Of a DNA stretch of 64,000 nt, positions 35,970-46,888 are shown piece after piece (positions within the stretch are counted from its first letter, which is position 1; every line of letters starts with the position of its first letter). A program made the translations under genes and the position numbers. Origin of the DNA: Escherichia coli (GTDB lineage Bacteria; Pseudomonadota; Gammaproteobacteria; Enterobacterales; Enterobacteriaceae); assembly GCF_001677475.2 (NCBI RefSeq), contig NZ_CP015229.1. The stretch is one strand, 5' to 3'. The notes under the pieces were generated by a model. The model saw only the letters and a list, made by a program, of their open reading frames with translations, was not told where the DNA came from and did no database searches.

Positions 35970-36575
35970 TTATTGTAAATAATTGAATAACGGCCCCTGA
36001 GCTAAAATCGCCAAACTTAAGCACGTTACCCACTCACCCCATTTCTGCCTCTGGCTTCTATTTTTGCTACACCAATGGCAATAATATCCCAATGCAAAAC
36101 CAACCTGTGCACTAATCGGGCCGACAAAATCAGTCCACGACTGCGGCCAAAAAGGGGAAAAATTCAGGGGAAGCCAGACAAACGTCAGAAAGAAATTTCG
36201 GATATTTTCCAGCAACGCTGATTTCTCTGGAGAAATATAAAGAATGAAATTCGAGAGAATTAACCAGAAATAGACCGGAGAAAAGACCAGCCAGCAATGC
36301 AGTCTGTTTTTTAATTCAGGAGGCGTTCTGCGGGAGAATTGCCAACCGATGCCCCACATTACACTGAAAAAAAATGCATATTCAACCATTAACTCAAGTT
36401 GTAATTCCTGAAGAGAAATACGCACAACCAGGAGCGGAAAGGAGAATGTTATTTCTGCCAGAAAAGTTAACGTGAATATAAGTACGGCTAAGACAATAAC
36501 CGTCGGCCATACCAATACTGGCACGATAACAAAACCGAGAATTACAGGGGGAATATAAAGCCGGAATTTAATCAT
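35970..36575 (-). CDS. Hypothetical small polytopic membrane protein (last gene of uncharacterised four-gene operon)
   Basis: 201-aa ORF with several hydrophobic helices; AGGAAA 7 nt upstream of ATG; 2-nt gap from the upstream gene's stop. Confidence 0.6.
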   Translation of the reverse strand: MIKFRLYIPPVILGFVIVPVLVWPTVIVLAVLIFTLTFLAEITFSFPLLVVRISLQELQLELMVEYAFFFSVMWGIGWQFSRRTPPELKNRLHCWLVFSPVYFWLILSNFILYISPEKSALLENIRNFFLTFVWLPLNFSPFWPQSWTDFVGPISAQVGFALGYYCHWCSKNRSQRQKWGEWVTCLSLAILAQGPLFNYLQ

Positions 36576-36577
36576 TT

Positions 36578-37345
36578 TTATTTTCCTGGTGATTCGGATG
36601 ATGCGTCATACATCGCGCATAAACACTCATCAATCATCCAGTCGTCTACCCAGACCTGATGCTGTGTACCCTGTTCTGGCTGCTTTGGTGGGTTCTCAAT
36701 CGCCTGCCGCGCGCGTTCTTTCAGGATGGATTGATTGTTGAAGGCCCAGGCATTGATTTGGGCGGTAATGGCATTATCGATATCGTCATGGTTATCTCTG
36801 ATATAACCTTCACGATACTGGTTCAATAAACAGGCAAGTGAAGCTGCCGACCAAAAGCCGGGAATTGAATTAACGGCATCAAGCAACGGCGCAATGGCGA
36901 TATCGGCACGGAAAAACATTTCCAGCATATACTGTAATTCGACAGCTTCATCGCCGGATACCCAATCAGCCATATACTGGCAGGCAAATCGCTGCAATAT
37001 TGCCCGTTCATCCGCACGCCAGTTTTCTTTGTTGGCAAGGTTGATACGGCGCAGAGAAAAAACTTCGTGAATATTGTCAAAATACCCCTGTGCAACAAAT
37101 TCCAGTAAACGCGGAAGAAAATAGCGGACCTCATCGCTATTTTGCGGATCGGGTCCTGGGCTACTATTCCAGGCATTGATTAAGGAATACGAGATCGCTC
37201 GTAACGATGTACTCCGTAATACCTTTTGTTCCTGCTGACTCAGGCAATATTCACAACAAACCACAAATTTCTGCGGCACCGGATAGCGACGAAAAATATG
37301 ATAAATCTGCTCAATTAATGCCTGCATGGCGGGGCTGGGTTGCAT
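36578..37345 (-). CDS. Hypothetical soluble protein (third gene of uncharacterised operon); start ambiguous
   Basis: Track ORF 36578..37372 (264 aa); preferred start is the ATG at 37343-37345 (MQPSPAMQALIEQ, 255 aa) preceded by GAGGGGG and 2 nt after the upstream stop. Confidence 0.55.
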   Translation of the reverse strand: MQPSPAMQALIEQIYHIFRRYPVPQKFVVCCEYCLSQQEQKVLRSTSLRAISYSLINAWNSSPGPDPQNSDEVRYFLPRLLEFVAQGYFDNIHEVFSLRRINLANKENWRADERAILQRFACQYMADWVSGDEAVELQYMLEMFFRADIAIAPLLDAVNSIPGFWSAASLACLLNQYREGYIRDNHDDIDNAITAQINAWAFNNQSILKERARQAIENPPKQPEQGTQHQVWVDDWMIDECLCAMYDASSESPGK

Positions 37346-37347
37346 AA

Positions 37348-38055
37348 TTACCCCCTCGCCCGCTGGTCGCATGTAAATGGTTGATAAACCAAACGAGCAT
37401 TCGCCGCATTCAGGCGAATAATGGCACTACGAGAGAGGGAAAAGCTGGGGCGAATGCAATAATTACAGTCCCGACAGCTATCCTCTGTGCAATTTTCCAC
37501 TGAGTAATGACGCGCGTAGAGTTTCAGTTCAGCCTGCTTATCGCGAAATCCGCGTAAACTGTTATCGCTATGAAATTTCCAGGCTTCTTTAAACACCTGA
37601 AAGATATAGACATCCTCAATCCAGGAGTCACATTTTTTAAGCGGGCGCTTTGCTATGATCACCCGCTCCGGGTTTAGCATCGCCGTAAAATGAACGGTGA
37701 AGTCATTTGTCGTATTCAGGTCACATTGAACATCTGGTACATCACTGATATAGGGGTCAAATCCAAAATCAGCACCACAGGCACAAAGACGACCGATCGT
37801 GGTGGTATCGAGGGAAAATCCCGGCCATACATTGCTGGACGTTAAGCCAATATTTAATGTGACATTATATCGAAGCAATCCCTCAAGACCGTCAGCACCG
37901 ACGAACTTTTCCCCTTCATCCAGGACCTGATTAATGAGTTGTTGAACAATACCTTCATCCCAGTATGCCGATTTGCAGTTGGCAATCGTAATATCCACGC
38001 CTGTGAAAGGATCAGTACCAGCGAGGCTTGCAAATAATGTATTAACTAATTCCAT
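37348..38055 (-). CDS. Hypothetical Cys-rich protein (second gene of uncharacterised operon)
   Basis: 235-aa ORF with 10 Cys including cluster C-x4-C-x2-C-x2-C (CTEDSCRDCNYC); 14 nt downstream of the first gene. Confidence 0.6.
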   Translation of the reverse strand: MELVNTLFASLAGTDPFTGVDITIANCKSAYWDEGIVQQLINQVLDEGEKFVGADGLEGLLRYNVTLNIGLTSSNVWPGFSLDTTTIGRLCACGADFGFDPYISDVPDVQCDLNTTNDFTVHFTAMLNPERVIIAKRPLKKCDSWIEDVYIFQVFKEAWKFHSDNSLRGFRDKQAELKLYARHYSVENCTEDSCRDCNYCIRPSFSLSRSAIIRLNAANARLVYQPFTCDQRARG

Positions 38056-38069
38056 TTTTATTACCCGCC

Positions 38070-39587
38070 TTAATGCAACGTTTTATACATCGGCACATAA
38101 CCCACGTCTTCTACCAAACTCTGCCCCTGCGGCGTTAAAAACCATTCAACCAGTTTTTGTGTTTCTGACGTCATATTTTCCCGCGTTACCATAAAGGCAT
38201 CGACGATATAGGGATATTTGCCATTGCGAATGTTTTCCGCAGTCGGTGCAATACCGTTAATCGCTAACAATTTGATATTCTTATCGGCATTCATTTGTGT
38301 TGCGTAATAGCGGAAGGTATAACCTATTGCGTTGTTTGTATTACGGTATTCGGCAACGACTTTAATCATTCCCTCCATCACACTTGCCACTTCGGTTTCC
38401 TGCGGCGAGATCATACGGACATTTTTCATGACCTGTAATTGCATCACCGTCTGACTGCCAGAGTCTTCCGGGCGTTGCCAGGTCTGGATCTCCTGATCGT
38501 TACCGCCAACAGTACGCCAGTTGGTAATTGCGCCACTAAAAATGTCTCGCACTTGTTGTTCAGTCAGGGAATTGACTGGATTATCAGCATTGACGATAAA
38601 AACAAATGCTTCACGGGCAAAGGGGGTGTACAGCAAAGTGACACCAGATTCCTTTGCACGTTTTTTCTGCCCACCGGAAGGTTGCGCCACGAAAATAATA
38701 TCAGCATCACCCTTAACGATTTTGTTATATGCTTCTGGCGTACGAGAGTTATCCAGATAATCCCAAACGTGAAAATCCTCTGGTATTATGCTTAACGCAT
38801 AAAAGGCAGAAGCATAAATTGGGTACGCCGCCGTGGCACCATCGATTCGCGGCCAGTTTTGCGTAAACTGAATTTGCGGTTTGCCACGCAGCGGCGTCAG
38901 TCGATTATTGAGTTTATCGGGTCGCCAGGCCCAGATATCAATATTTTCGCGTACACCAACACCAGGGTTTTGCTGCTTATATAAATGGGCCTGATACCCA
39001 GCGACAATACCAAGTAAGAGAAGTAGAAACAGGAGTAAGTTACGGCAACGTAGCCCGGACGTGCCGGTTAAAGGATGCCTTGTCGGCCAGCCGTATCCCA
39101 GCGAAAAACTGATATGCGTTCCAACGGGAATAATGACTATCCACCAGTACTCACCACCGACTAATGAGACTAACAAAACACCCAGCCAGGGAAGCATAAG
39201 ATCTGCCAACCAACCTGAAACCATCTGGCGAAATTGATAATCTGCCAGATGTAGCGTGATTATCCAGCCAACCAGGATTAATAAAGCAGGAACTAAAAAA
39301 AGACATTGTCGCCAGGCGGCTATTTCTCTGTTTTCTGGTGCGCTATCGCCCGCCCACACTCGCCCAGAGAAAAATAGCAGTAATGCGCCCAGCGTCAGCA
39401 TAAAGACGTTAAGTAGAAGATAAATTGTTGGCGTAAAGAGTAAATTGCAAAACTCAAGAATAGCGGCAAGCCCGGCCCCCAGCATGGCAATAACCGCCGC
39501 CAAAAACTGCGCCAGAATGGGGATGCCGAAAAAAGTCATTACCAGCGAGGTCAAAATCCATTTTCTGTTTTGCATTATTCTTTCCAT
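38070..39587 (-). CDS. Membrane-anchored PstS-like (PBP-like) substrate-binding-domain protein (first gene of uncharacterised operon); probably the intact form of K-12 pseudogene yzgL
   Basis: 505-aa ORF; N-terminal ~190 aa with multiple hydrophobic helices; C-terminal part with phosphate-binding-protein-like motifs (LTEQQVRDIFSGAITNWRTVGG); alternative start at Met5 (39575). Confidence 0.7.
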   Translation of the reverse strand: MERIMQNRKWILTSLVMTFFGIPILAQFLAAVIAMLGAGLAAILEFCNLLFTPTIYLLLNVFMLTLGALLLFFSGRVWAGDSAPENREIAAWRQCLFLVPALLILVGWIITLHLADYQFRQMVSGWLADLMLPWLGVLLVSLVGGEYWWIVIIPVGTHISFSLGYGWPTRHPLTGTSGLRCRNLLLFLLLLLGIVAGYQAHLYKQQNPGVGVRENIDIWAWRPDKLNNRLTPLRGKPQIQFTQNWPRIDGATAAYPIYASAFYALSIIPEDFHVWDYLDNSRTPEAYNKIVKGDADIIFVAQPSGGQKKRAKESGVTLLYTPFAREAFVFIVNADNPVNSLTEQQVRDIFSGAITNWRTVGGNDQEIQTWQRPEDSGSQTVMQLQVMKNVRMISPQETEVASVMEGMIKVVAEYRNTNNAIGYTFRYYATQMNADKNIKLLAINGIAPTAENIRNGKYPYIVDAFMVTRENMTSETQKLVEWFLTPQGQSLVEDVGYVPMYKTLH

Positions 39588-39604
39588 TCTTTCTGAATGG
39601 CGAA

Positions 39605-39610
39605 ATTATA
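39605..39610 (-). promoter_or_regulatory. Candidate -10 hexamer for the uncharacterised four-gene operon
   Basis: Minus strand TATAAT about 18-23 nt upstream of the first ATG and downstream of the glgP terminator; no good -35. Confidence 0.35.
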
Positions 39611-39659
39611 CTCCCCGAGTCCCCTTGCCCCTTCTGGACACTTTTCCGAAATGATGGCG

Positions 39660-42168: not shown

Positions 42169-43602
42169 CTATTTCAAGCGATAGTAAAGCTCACGGTACG
42201 ACTTCGCCGCGACCTGCCAGCTAAAATCCATTGCCATAGCCTGACGTTGCACAAACCGCCACAGTGAAGGACGGGACCACAGTACAAAAGCACGTCGAAT
42301 AGCCCGTAACAGCGACCAGGCATTACTATCTTCAAAGACAAACCCACTGGCGACGCCATCTGCAAGGTTCTCAAGAGAACAGTCAGAAACCGTATCAGCA
42401 AGCCCACCGGTGCGCCGCACTAACGGCAGCGTACCGTACTTCAATCCATAAAGTTGCGTTAAGCCGCACGGTTCAAAACGGCTGGGCACCAGAATGACGT
42501 CCGCGCCGCCCATAATGCGATGCGAAAATGCTTCGTGATAGCCAATCTGAACGCCCACCTGGCCGGGGTATTCCGCTGCCGCCGCAAGGAAACCTTCCTG
42601 CAGCACCGGATCGCCCGCGCCGAGTAGCGCCAACTGCCCGCCCTGCTCCAGAAGACCCGGTAAGGCTTCCAGCACCAGGTCGAGACCTTTCTGGCTGGTC
42701 AGACGGCTCACCACTGCAAAAAGCGGCACTTTATCGTCAACCTTAAGCCCCATTGCGATTTGTAACTGGCGCTTATTTTCCGCTTTATCTTCCAACGTAT
42801 CGCGGGTGTAGCGCGAGGCCAACAGTAAGTCCGTCTCTGGACTCCAGATTTTCTCGTCCACGCCGTTCAGTACGCCTGAAAGACGCCCTTCACGGTGACG
42901 CTGTTGCAACAGACCTTCCATACCGTAGGCAAACTGCGGTTCGGTGATCTCGCGAGCGTAGGTTGGACTGACCGCCGTAATGTGATCGGCATAGTACAGA
43001 CCGGCCTTCAGGAAAGAGATTTGTCCGTTGAATTCCAGCCCATGAATATTAAAGAATGACCATGGCAATTGGATGTCATTCATATGATGTGCATAAAACA
43101 TGCCTTGATAGGCCAGGTTGTGCACAGTAAACACCGACTTCGCCGGACGCCCGCGCGCCGCCAGATACGCAGGCGCAAGGCCTGCATGCCAGTCGTGCGC
43201 ATGCACCACATCAGGACGCCAGAATGGGTCAAGACCGCTGGCCATTTCTGCCCCAACCCACCCCAGCAGCGCAAAACGCAATACGTTGTCGGTATAGGCA
43301 AATAAGTTGGTATCGTGATACGGGCTTCCCGGACGATCATAGAGATGCGGCGCGTCAATCAGGTAAATGCCAACCCCGTTGTAATGACCGAACAACAGCG
43401 TGATATGTCCGGCGAAGGTATCACGACGGGATACTACCTGCGCATCGGTCACGCCACGGCGAATATCGGGAAATGCAGGCAACAGTACGCGAGCGTCAAC
43501 GCCGTCTGCGATTTGTGCTGCGGGTAATGCCCCAATAACATCAGCCAGACCGCCGGTTTTAAGCAGCGGGAACATCTCTGAACATACATGTAAAACCTGC
43601 AT
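42169..43602 (-). CDS. glgA: Glycogen synthase
   Basis: 477-aa ORF; N-terminal KTGGLADV motif. Confidence 0.97.
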
Positions 43603-44897
43603 TATCGCTCCTGTTTATGCCCTAACTTCCGTAGCATTTCGCGCGTTACCAGCACGATGCCTTCTTCTGAACGATAGAAACGACGTGCATCTTCCTCTGC
43701 GTTTTCACCAATCACCATGCCTTCCGGAATAACACAAGCACGATCGATGACGCAGCGGCGCAGACGGCACGAGCGACCTACCCATACTTCCGGTAACAAT
43801 ACGGCGGAATCAATGTTGCAGAATGAATTCACGCGAACGCGCGAGAACAGAACGGACTGCACCACCACCGAGCCGGAGATTACACAACCGCCGGAAACCA
43901 GTGAGTTAAGGGTCATCCCGTGGCTACCGGAGCGATCCTGCACGAATTTCGCTGGCGGTAATGATTCATTGTAGGTGCGAATTGGCCAATTGCGATCGTA
44001 CATATCCAGTTCCGGCACCACAGAGGCCAGATCGAGGTTCGCTTTCCAGTAAGCTTCCAGCGTACCCACATCGCGCCAGTACGGCTCGGCATCCGGGTCG
44101 GATTGTACGCAAGAGAGCGGGAACGGGTGCGCATAGGCCAGACCGGCTTCGGTGATCTTGGGAATCAAATCTTTGCCAAAGTCGTGGCTGGAGTTCTCAT
44201 CGCGATCGTCTTCTTCCAGCAGTTCATACAGATAGTCGGCGTCAAAGACGTAGATACCCATACTCGCCAGAGATTTGCTCGGATCGTTCGGCATTGACGG
44301 TGGGTTAGCAGGTTTTTCAACGAATTCGATAATTTTATCGTTCTCATCAACCGCCATAACACCAAATGCGGAGGCTTCTTCAATCGGTACTGGCATACAA
44401 GCAACGGTGCAACGTGCGCCTTTTTCGACGTGATCGATAAGCATACGCGAGTAGTCTTGCTTGTAGATATGGTCGCCCGCCAGGATTACCACGTATTCCG
44501 CTTTATAACGGCGGATAATATCGAGGTTTTGGGTGACCGCATCTGCGGTGCCGCGATACCAGTTTTCCCCTTTCATTCTCTGCTGTGCTGGCAGCAGATC
44601 GACAAACTCGTTCATTTCTTCATTGAAGAATGACCAGCCGCGCTGAATGTGCTGCACCAGAGTGTGGGACTGGTACTGGGTGATCACGCCCATACGACGG
44701 ATCCCGGAGTTGATGCAGTTAGACAGCGCAAAGTCAATAATGCGGAACTTACCGCCGAAGTGTACGGCCGGTTTTGCTCGCTTATTGGTTAAATCCTTCA
44801 GGCGGGTACCACGTCCTCCCGCCAGTATCAGGGCAACAGATTTCAATGGCAGCTGGCGCGCCAACATTAAGTGATCGTTCTTCTCTAAACTAACCAT
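43602..44897 (-). CDS. glgC: Glucose-1-phosphate adenylyltransferase
   Basis: Track ORF 43602..44933; start at ATG 44895-44897 ([17 protein letters not shown]) with AAGGAG upstream; 431 aa. Confidence 0.96.
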
Positions 44898-44975
44898 GAC
44901 TAACTCCTTTTTTATCATCTCTGGAACACACACAATCCGTGTGCAGGTCCCTGCCAGACAGCCGTAATCACTGGG
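44898..44975 (-). promoter_or_regulatory. glgC 5' leader, overlapping the 3' end of glgX; known target of CsrA
   Basis: Leader reads ...CACACGGAUUGUGUGUGUUCCAGAGAUGAUAAAAAAGGAGUUAGUC-AUG with GGA motifs in a hairpin loop and at the Shine-Dalgarno. Confidence 0.55.
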
Positions 44976-46888
44976 TTATCCTCTCCAGCGAATGGGGGAA
45001 TGGCGTGCCACTCCCCAGCAGGTAAAACAATCTCTGTTACCTCAAGCGTGGCGTTAATTGCGATCAAAAAGCGATCCGAGAGCAGAATTTGCAGCTGTTT
45101 CGGCCCGTTTTGCCACTCATCCGTGCTTAAAGGTTGAGCATATCGATTTAGCCAACGGACATTGCCGTCGCCTTCTTCCCACCAGCGATTCTCCACCAAA
45201 GCGGGAATGCGCTTGCGCAGATGGATTAACGCGGCGGTAAATGCGGTTAAACCACTGCTTGCCTGCGACCAGTCCAACCAGGTTAATTGGTTATCCTGAC
45301 AGTAGGCATTGTTATTGCCATGCTGGCTGTGACCATGTTCGTCACCGGCCAGTAACATCGGCGTACCCTGGGAGAGCAACAACGTTGTTAACAGGGCGTG
45401 AATGCTGTCGCGCCGCCGTTCAACCAGGTCAAGAGTACCGCCTAACCCTTCTTTACCATGATTGTTACTGTAATTGTTGTTGGTCCCGTCGCGATTTTCT
45501 TCTCCGTTTGCTTCATTGTGTTTATGGTTGAAACAAACGCAGTCGCGAAGCGTAAAACCGTCATGCGCGGTGACGAGATTAATCGCGGCACTCGGCAGAC
45601 GACCATTACGTTTAAAAACATCGCTGGAGGCAGCAAAACGCCCGGCAAACGCCCCCAGAGGCAAATCATAATGTAGCCAGAAACGACGGGCAGCATCGCG
45701 GAAATGATCGTTCCACTCGGCAAACAGCGGCGGGAAATTTCCCACCTGATAACCACCAGGAGCGATATCCCACGGTTCAGCAATTAACTTCACCTGCGAG
45801 AGCACCGGGCAGTTCTGGATAGCGGTAAACAACGGCGCATCCTGACGGAACTCTGGCGTACGGCCCATGACTGCCGCCAGATCAAAGCGGAAACCATCGA
45901 CGTGGCAGGTTTCTACCCAATAACGCAGGCAGGCGCTGGCATAATCCACCACCGCCGGATGACTCAAATTGAGCGTGTTGCCACAACCGGTCCAGTTGTG
46001 ATAATCGCCGTCTTCTCTTATCCAATAATAGCTACGGTTGTCGATCCCACGCAGCGAGAATAACGGGCCGTCGAGGTCCAGTTCCGCACTATGGTTGAGC
46101 ACGATATCAAGAATGACTTCGATACCCGCTTTATGCAGTGCTTTGATTGCATCGCGAAACTCATCCAGCGCCGTTTCTGGCGAGCAGGCATACGCCGGAT
46201 GCAGCGCAAACATCGCCACCGGGTTATAACCCCAGTAGTTACTTAGACCCATACGTTGCAGGCGTGGTTCGCTGGCAAACTGCGCCACCGGCAGCAGTTC
46301 CAGCGCGGTAATGCCCAACTGTTTCAAATAGTTGATCATCACCGGATGCCCCAGGGCTTTATAAGTGCCACGGATCTCGACTGGGATCTCCGGGTGCAGG
46401 TACGTTAATCCTTTGACATGGGCTTCATAAATGATGGTGCTGCCCCACGGCGTGCGCGGCGGGGCATCATCTTCCCAGTCATAGTGATCAACCACCACTA
46501 CGCATTTCGGCGCAATGGCGGCGTTGTCGCGATAGTCAGGTTCATTATGACCGGCGTGCAGCAGCGGGTTATCTTTAAACTCCCCGTCAATTTGCCGCGC
46601 GCAAGGATCAATCAACAACTTCGCCGGGTTAAAGCGATGCCCCTCGGCGGGTTGCCAGGGGCCATGAACGCGATAACCATAACGCAAACCCGGGCGCGCA
46701 TCCGGCAGATAACCGTGCCAAATGTCGCCACTGTGCCCTGGCAAGTCATAGCGATGTTCCTGGCCATTGGCGTCAAAGACACACAGTTCTACCCGCTCGG
46801 CATGAGCGGAGAAAAGTGTGAAGTTGACGCCCTGACCGTCGTAATGCGCGCCGAGGGGAGCGGGTTTGCCAATGGCGAGTTGTGTCAT
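44915..46888 (-). CDS. glgX: Glycogen debranching enzyme
   Basis: 657-aa ORF; GH13 family; overlaps glgB stop by 4 nt. Confidence 0.96.

Follow-up and report, generated by a model that had tools for sequence, protein, structure and literature searches.

The stretch of DNA analysed here (hereafter the window, 64,000 nt) derives from an Escherichia coli chromosome, and the glgX/glgC junction found on its minus strand almost certainly corresponds to the well-studied mRNA leader of E. coli glgC (glgCAP), the founding CsrA target, in which dual-site binding occludes the Shine-Dalgarno sequence and the tethering site is located within the glgX coding sequence. The arrangement is already known, and a preliminary description made from the DNA letters interpreted it correctly apart from the placement of the Shine-Dalgarno sequence. 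CsrA binding, ribosome exclusion and dual-site bridging are taken from the literature (footprints, mutagenesis and Salmonella CLIP-seq), while the anatomy of the junction, its identity with the published leader, the unpaired presentation of its GGA motifs and a codon preference for GGA at the hairpin loop in Enterobacteriaceae come from the present analysis.

The junction belongs to the glgBXCAP cluster. When a 501-nt stretch spanning it was compared to complete E. coli genomes, at least 99% identity was found in 5425 of 5426, annotated as glgX followed by glgC, and the wider annotation gives the gene order asd-glgB-glgX-glgC-glgA-glgP. The RefSeq annotation of the identical stretch is in agreement with the gene identities previously proposed for the two reading frames. 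The elements of the junction are as follows:

44915–46888, minus strand: glgX coding sequence, encoding the glycogen debranching enzyme (657 aa; open reading frame list, translation and RefSeq annotation of the identical stretch).
44915–44917, minus strand: glgX stop codon TGA, followed by an in-frame TAA at 44914–44912.
44898–44914, minus strand: glgX-glgC intercistronic spacer, 17 nt.
44904–44909, minus strand: glgC Shine-Dalgarno sequence AAGGAG, with its GGA at 44907–44905, 6 nt before the ATG; the lower-affinity CsrA site according to the literature.
43602–44897, minus strand: glgC coding sequence, encoding ADP-glucose pyrophosphorylase (431 aa), with the ATG at 44897–44895 (open reading frame list and RefSeq annotation).

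The glgC start lies 18 nt after the last base of the glgX stop, as had been described. The Shine-Dalgarno sequence does contain a GGA, again as described, but its suggested position within the final codons of glgX could not be upheld, as AAGGAG begins 5 nt past the glgX stop, within the spacer. The tandem in-frame stops TGA and TAA (44912–44917) together terminate glgX. Elsewhere in the cluster, glgB and glgX overlap by 4 nt (46885–46888) and glgC and glgA share a single nucleotide (43602), both typical of tightly packed operon junctions.

A four-gene island is situated between glgP and glpD (window positions 36000–39650; minus-strand open reading frames at 38070–39587 and 37348–38055, among others), encoding a 505-aa PstS-like (PBP_like_2) protein and three hypothetical proteins. 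The island is present at full length in only 2430 of the 5426 complete E. coli genomes, with K-12 retaining just a yzgL remnant. Most copies share only 90–95% identity with the window, at least 99% being reached in just 38 genomes, and the island is far more divergent than the adjoining glg genes with their identity of at least 99%.

The extent of the leader was deduced from a published construct, described as covering +46 to +179 relative to the glgC transcription start and made with primers of given sequence (PMC2896534). The genomic parts of these primers have unique matches in the window, at 44986–44974 and 44867–44853. As the primers thus map to 44986 and 44853, we infer that transcription of glgC starts at 45031, which gives the following leader:

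44898–45031, minus strand: glgC leader, 134 nt (+1 to +134), its start derived from the published construct numbering.

A sigma-70 promoter scan near the leader, including the deduced start, returned no consensus promoter, and the start is therefore based on construct numbering and not on sequence. Scanning the same surroundings for intrinsic terminators gave no hit, and an Rfam scan of 44600–45400 at a permissive threshold identified no leader family, only two snoRNA matches at chance level (E = 4–5).

The first 117 nt of the leader (45031–44915) consist of glgX codons and the stop, and the last 17 nt are the spacer. The preliminary description, which covered only +57 to +134 of a leader beginning at about 45031, placed the leader inside glgX; this is accurate for the hairpin (44951–44923) and for the leader upstream of it, both of which are coding, but not for the spacer with its Shine-Dalgarno sequence. 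Since the hairpin and the upstream leader lie in the glgX frame, CsrA-mediated control is superimposed on coding sequence, as had been pointed out, and the loop GGA is itself an in-frame Gly codon of GlgX. That glgC transcripts begin within or upstream of glgX has long been established, which is why the final 38 glgX codons contain both the hairpin site and the GGA motifs upstream of it.

The 134-nt leader contains six GGA motifs, compared to a mean of 1.8 for equal-sized segments of the same strand, of which only 0.5% contain six or more. Apart from the Shine-Dalgarno GGA, the motifs and structures of most relevance are the following:

44979–44986, minus strand: upstream GGA pair GGAGAGGA, with GGA at +46 and +51; candidate upstream CsrA site or sites, the GGA at +51 being predicted to be unpaired.
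44923–44951, minus strand: full predicted stem-loop, comprising an outer 5-bp stem, a 2-nt bulge and an inner 6-bp stem (−11.9 kcal/mol in isolation).
44928–44944, minus strand: inner hairpin GCACAC-GGAUU-GUGUGU, the published high-affinity CsrA site, encoding Ala-His-Gly-Leu-Cys-Val.
44936–44938, minus strand: loop GGA, the in-frame Gly codon of GlgX (translation and alignment).

Folding of the minus strand gave a hairpin with a GGAUU loop in both the minimum free energy (MFE) and the centroid structure, bearing out the GGA-containing hairpin that had been read from the sequence. The outer stem, GGGAC/GUUCC, pairs 44951–44947 with 44927–44923, and the inner stem pairs GCACAC (44944–44939) with GUGUGU (44933–44928), leaving 44938–44934 in the loop. 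The same hairpin was obtained in both contexts used, one of 78 nt (44975–44898) and one of 161 nt (45040–44880). In the whole-leader ensemble the pair probability of the inner stem was approximately 0.76. Within the loop GGA, the last two bases were unpaired with a probability of 1.0 and the first G with 0.53, and the GGA motifs of the Shine-Dalgarno sequence and at +51 were both approximately 0.9 unpaired. The fold energy was not better than that of dinucleotide shuffles (z = +0.48 for 78 nt and −0.85 for 161 nt), and thermodynamics alone cannot validate the hairpin. The GU-repeat stem permits two registers, and GCG...TGC alleles found in many Enterobacteriaceae (e.g. L012, L043 and L064) shift the pairing by 2 nt, their MFE structure having a GGA triloop closed by a stem of 7 bp.

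The window contains about 0.7 hairpins per kb that have a stem of 6 bp or more and a loop GGA, so that 0.04 would be expected within the 54 nt upstream of the Shine-Dalgarno sequence over which CsrA could bridge. Across the whole window, 63 such hairpins were found on the minus strand and 28 on the plus strand, a difference that probably reflects strand composition; they were evenly spread on both strands, and no CsrB-like cluster was seen.

The junction was compared to the published CsrA target, and the two coincide. The CsrA site footprinted outside the Shine-Dalgarno sequence is ACGGA, and point mutations in it alter repression (PMC6028588). ACGGA occurs once in the leader, at 44940–44936 (+92 to +96), across the stem-loop junction of the hairpin, and the construct primers map uniquely to this junction. 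Four CsrA sites have been described in the glgC leader, one overlapping the Shine-Dalgarno sequence and one in the loop of a hairpin just upstream, where high-affinity binding tethers the CsrA dimer before it bridges to the Shine-Dalgarno sequence and blocks the ribosome (PMC7652899); the same hairpin-tethering mechanism is given in PMC2896534. The GGA pair in GGAGAGGA may represent another of the four. The loop GGA at +94 and the Shine-Dalgarno GGA at +125 are 31 nt apart, which falls within the 10–63 nt over which a CsrA dimer can bridge (PMC7652899). The SELEX consensus for CsrA is RUACARGGAUGU, with ACA and GGA invariant (PMC7652899), and GCACACGGAUUG matches it at 8 of 12 positions, including both ACA and GGA. 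The junction accordingly carries the features of a dual-site CsrA leader, namely a loop GGA in a short hairpin, a GGA in the Shine-Dalgarno sequence, bridgeable spacing between the two and resemblance to the SELEX consensus. In Salmonella, CsrA CLIP-seq reads "almost perfectly overlapped" the GGA hairpin of the glgC leader in vivo (PMC5207318).

In the textbook mechanism, which best explains the element, one RNA-binding face of the CsrA dimer takes the loop GGA of the hairpin at 44944–44928, and the other bridges to the GGA of the Shine-Dalgarno sequence at 44909–44904. CsrA bound in this manner excludes the 30S subunit, repressing translation of glgC and lowering glycogen synthesis, and the untranslated glgC mRNA is also less stable, an influence of CsrA on glgC mRNA stability having been reported (PMC7652899). 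Titration of CsrA by the small RNAs CsrB and CsrC relieves the repression.

The influence on stability has also to be weighed under a different reading, in which the stem-loop acts independently of CsrA as a stability or processing element of the glgCAP mRNA, or ends transcription of glgBX by termination or attenuation. Internal starts and stops have been reported for glgBXCAP in Dickeya, which together with the effect of CsrA on glgC mRNA stability speaks for such a role. On the other hand, the stem is not followed by a U-tract, the scan contained no terminator-like site, the hairpin lies about 87 nt from the deduced 5' end and is hence not a 5'-terminal protective stem, and no Rfam family matches. 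We regard a CsrA-independent role of this type as very improbable.

Relatives were collected by scanning one genome per species for a pattern back-translated from a GlgC motif that is independent of the leader, which yielded 120 loci. In 55 of these, glgX is directly upstream of glgC. The glgX-glgC spacers are mostly 9–18 nt, extending to 54–79 nt in Kluyvera and Pseudocitrobacter and shrinking to 2 nt in Pluralibacter gergoviae (L061), with overlaps in Tatumella morbirosei (L069, −4) and Kosakonia cowanii (L120, −7). In P. gergoviae and K. cowanii the Shine-Dalgarno sequence is located inside glgX codons, the arrangement that had been claimed for E. coli, and the 4-nt overlap implies that this is probably also the case in Tatumella.

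Insertions widen the glgX-glgC spacer to 22–79 nt in Kluyvera (L033), Pseudocitrobacter (L043 and L064) and a Pluralibacter metagenome-assembled genome (MAG; L111). The hairpin GGA is thereby placed 71–96 nt from the Shine-Dalgarno GGA in Kluyvera and Pseudocitrobacter, past the 63-nt bridging range, and 51 nt from it in the Pluralibacter MAG. The three long spacers of Kluyvera and Pseudocitrobacter contain new GGA motifs approximately 15–28 nt from the Shine-Dalgarno GGA. In the Pluralibacter MAG, a GGA lies 22 nt upstream of the Shine-Dalgarno GGA, in an extended GlgX tail; some of the new motifs of these lengthened junctions fall in predicted small hairpins. Copies of glgC without glgX upstream were found in Providencia (L003), Cedecea (L087), a Klebsiella MAG (L062), Edwardsiella (L050) and as pairs in Aeromonas (e.g. 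L044/L045). Several such genomes carry two glgC loci, and the regions upstream of the copies lacking glgX are AT-rich and have no hairpin.

The embedding of the hairpin in a coding sequence raises the possibility that it is a mere by-product of the C-terminal GlgX peptide AHG[V/L]CVF, with no role as RNA, and that only the Shine-Dalgarno sequence matters. Conservation of the peptide W[HQ]GPAHG[VL]CVF spans the Enterobacteriaceae and Erwiniaceae, and a looser A[HQ]x[VI]CV[LF] reaches Yersinia, Serratia and Pectobacterium. In these three genera the loop position is occupied by Thr, Ala or Ser and the GGA is missing, so that the motif A[HQ]x[VI]CV persists there in the absence of the GGA. Four of the six inner-stem pairs are set by the conserved A-H-G-V/L-C-V; with these pairs fixed by the Ala-His...Cys-Val codons, conservation of the stem is confounded with conservation of the protein. 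The absence of a significant z-score for the fold points in the same direction, as does the weak covariation. RNAalifold applied to 31 species recovered the inner hairpin, to which covariation contributed only −0.25 kcal/mol; the outer stem, poorly conserved among species, was not recovered. In 49 sequences, 81% of the inner-stem cells can pair, and a register slid by 2 nt was also 75% paired. The synonymous pair formed by the third positions of the Ala and Cys codons (Ala3-Cys3) was GC in 20, AU in 8, GU in 8 and other in 7 of this 49-sequence set; the corresponding Fisher odds ratio of 3.7 (p = 0.055) was calculated with no correction for phylogeny and is confounded by amino-acid constraint and by the slipped GU register, and compensatory change at Ala3-Cys3 is suggestive only.

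A clearer distinction between RNA and protein was provided by codon choice. Of 36 relatives, 26 (72%) use GGA for the loop Gly, compared to a mean of 14% over 12 control Gly columns upstream of the leader, and GGA is a rare codon. The final 200 glgX codons include 16 conserved Gly columns, of which the loop column has the highest share of GGA, and the second highest is the Gly codon holding the GGA at +46 (56% of relatives). The binomial p-values for the loop GGA codon are uncorrected for kinship among species. Synonymous sites of the Val, Cys and Ala codons next to the loop Gly vary freely, and the leader codons as a whole showed no general reduction in synonymous diversity (0.675 vs 0.728, p = 0.14). 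By family, the loop GGA is present in about 28 of 34 Enterobacteriaceae vs 1 of 10 Erwiniaceae, and it is absent in Yersiniaceae. The site thus appears, from these alignments, to be conserved beyond coding constraint in Enterobacteriaceae through the choice of GGA at the loop Gly, and the RNA signal that is separable from protein constraint amounts to this one synonymous choice, which is restricted by lineage.

The by-product reading is further opposed by the footprints at ACGGA and the point mutants that change repression (PMC6028588), by the description of the hairpin as a high-affinity tether (PMC7652899 and PMC2896534) and by the centring of the CLIP-seq reads on the hairpin (PMC5207318). 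Being contradicted by mutagenesis, CLIP data and the GGA codon bias alike, it was rejected as extremely improbable. It is conceivable, if rather doubtful, that an ancestral GlgX peptide (A-H-x-V-C-V) encoded the hairpin anyway and that fixation of Gly(GGA) at the loop allowed the Enterobacteriaceae to co-opt it for CsrA binding.

A reading that leaves the CsrA site intact concerns the ribosomes that translate glgX. Part of the literature describes glgBXCAP as a single transcription unit transcribed from upstream of glgB. In one model, attributed to Montero 2011, glgC is reportedly transcribed mainly from upstream of glgB; if so, the "leader" is translated as glgX in vivo. On a full-length glgBXCAP mRNA, ribosomes finishing glgX might then unfold the hairpin, strip CsrA from it and allow coupled initiation at glgC, which we consider possible though on the unlikely side. 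The sensitivity of glgC to CsrA would in that case depend on the promoter used and on the level of glgX translation, which modifies dual-site repression by CsrA and does not replace it. Such coupling is compatible with the position of the hairpin, in frame within glgX, with the 5 nt between the glgX stop and the Shine-Dalgarno sequence, with spacers or overlaps of −7 to 18 nt in most relatives and with the single glgBXCAP unit of the literature. Among the papers searched, none dealt with translational coupling between glgX and glgC. Reporter constructs containing only the leader are strongly repressed by CsrA (published, including PMC6028588), CLIP-seq places CsrA on the hairpin in vivo, meaning that translation of glgX does not prevent binding (PMC5207318), and the tolerance of several genera for spacers of 54–79 nt argues against obligatory coupling. 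It is also conceivable, if rather doubtful, that CsrA control of glgC is promoter-dependent, acting fully on transcripts that start inside glgX and being displaced by ribosomes, with coupled initiation, on the full-length glgBXCAP mRNA.

Dual-site repression by CsrA, the preferred explanation, is in line with the known systems to which the junction was compared. The E. coli K-12 glgC (glgCAP) leader (Baker et al. 2002; Mercante et al. 2009, via PMC7652899) has the same locus, hairpin ACGGA, AAGGAG and 134-nt leader; there is no material difference, although the strain of the window is not K-12. The Salmonella enterica glgC leader (PMC5207318) shares the GGA hairpin with E. coli and most of the Enterobacteriaceae sampled but differs in its stem alleles, where GCG...TGC gives a G-C pair in place of the A-U pair of E. 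coli and a 2-nt shift to a GGA triloop is possible. The leaders of cstA, pgaA and the ColE7 cel gene also combine a GGA in a hairpin loop with a GGA in the Shine-Dalgarno sequence and act by ribosome exclusion; their sites are found in truly untranslated leaders, whereas the tethering site of glgC is found in the coding sequence of the upstream gene. In Erwinia and Pantoea, the gene order, the C-terminal GlgX peptide and the stem are as in E. coli, but 9 of 10 use GGY for the loop Gly, leaving a hairpin without GGA. The missing loop GGA in Erwiniaceae agrees with a published finding that glycogen accumulation in E. amylovora is not repressed by CsrA (PMC5109040).

Among CsrA targets the glgC leader was the first and is the most used, and it provides the standard reporter for CsrA activity. 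The present finding serves as a positive control, in which a real regulatory element was recognised from sequence alone. To what was known of this element the comparison with relatives adds one modest point, the lineage-restricted GGA at the loop glycine.
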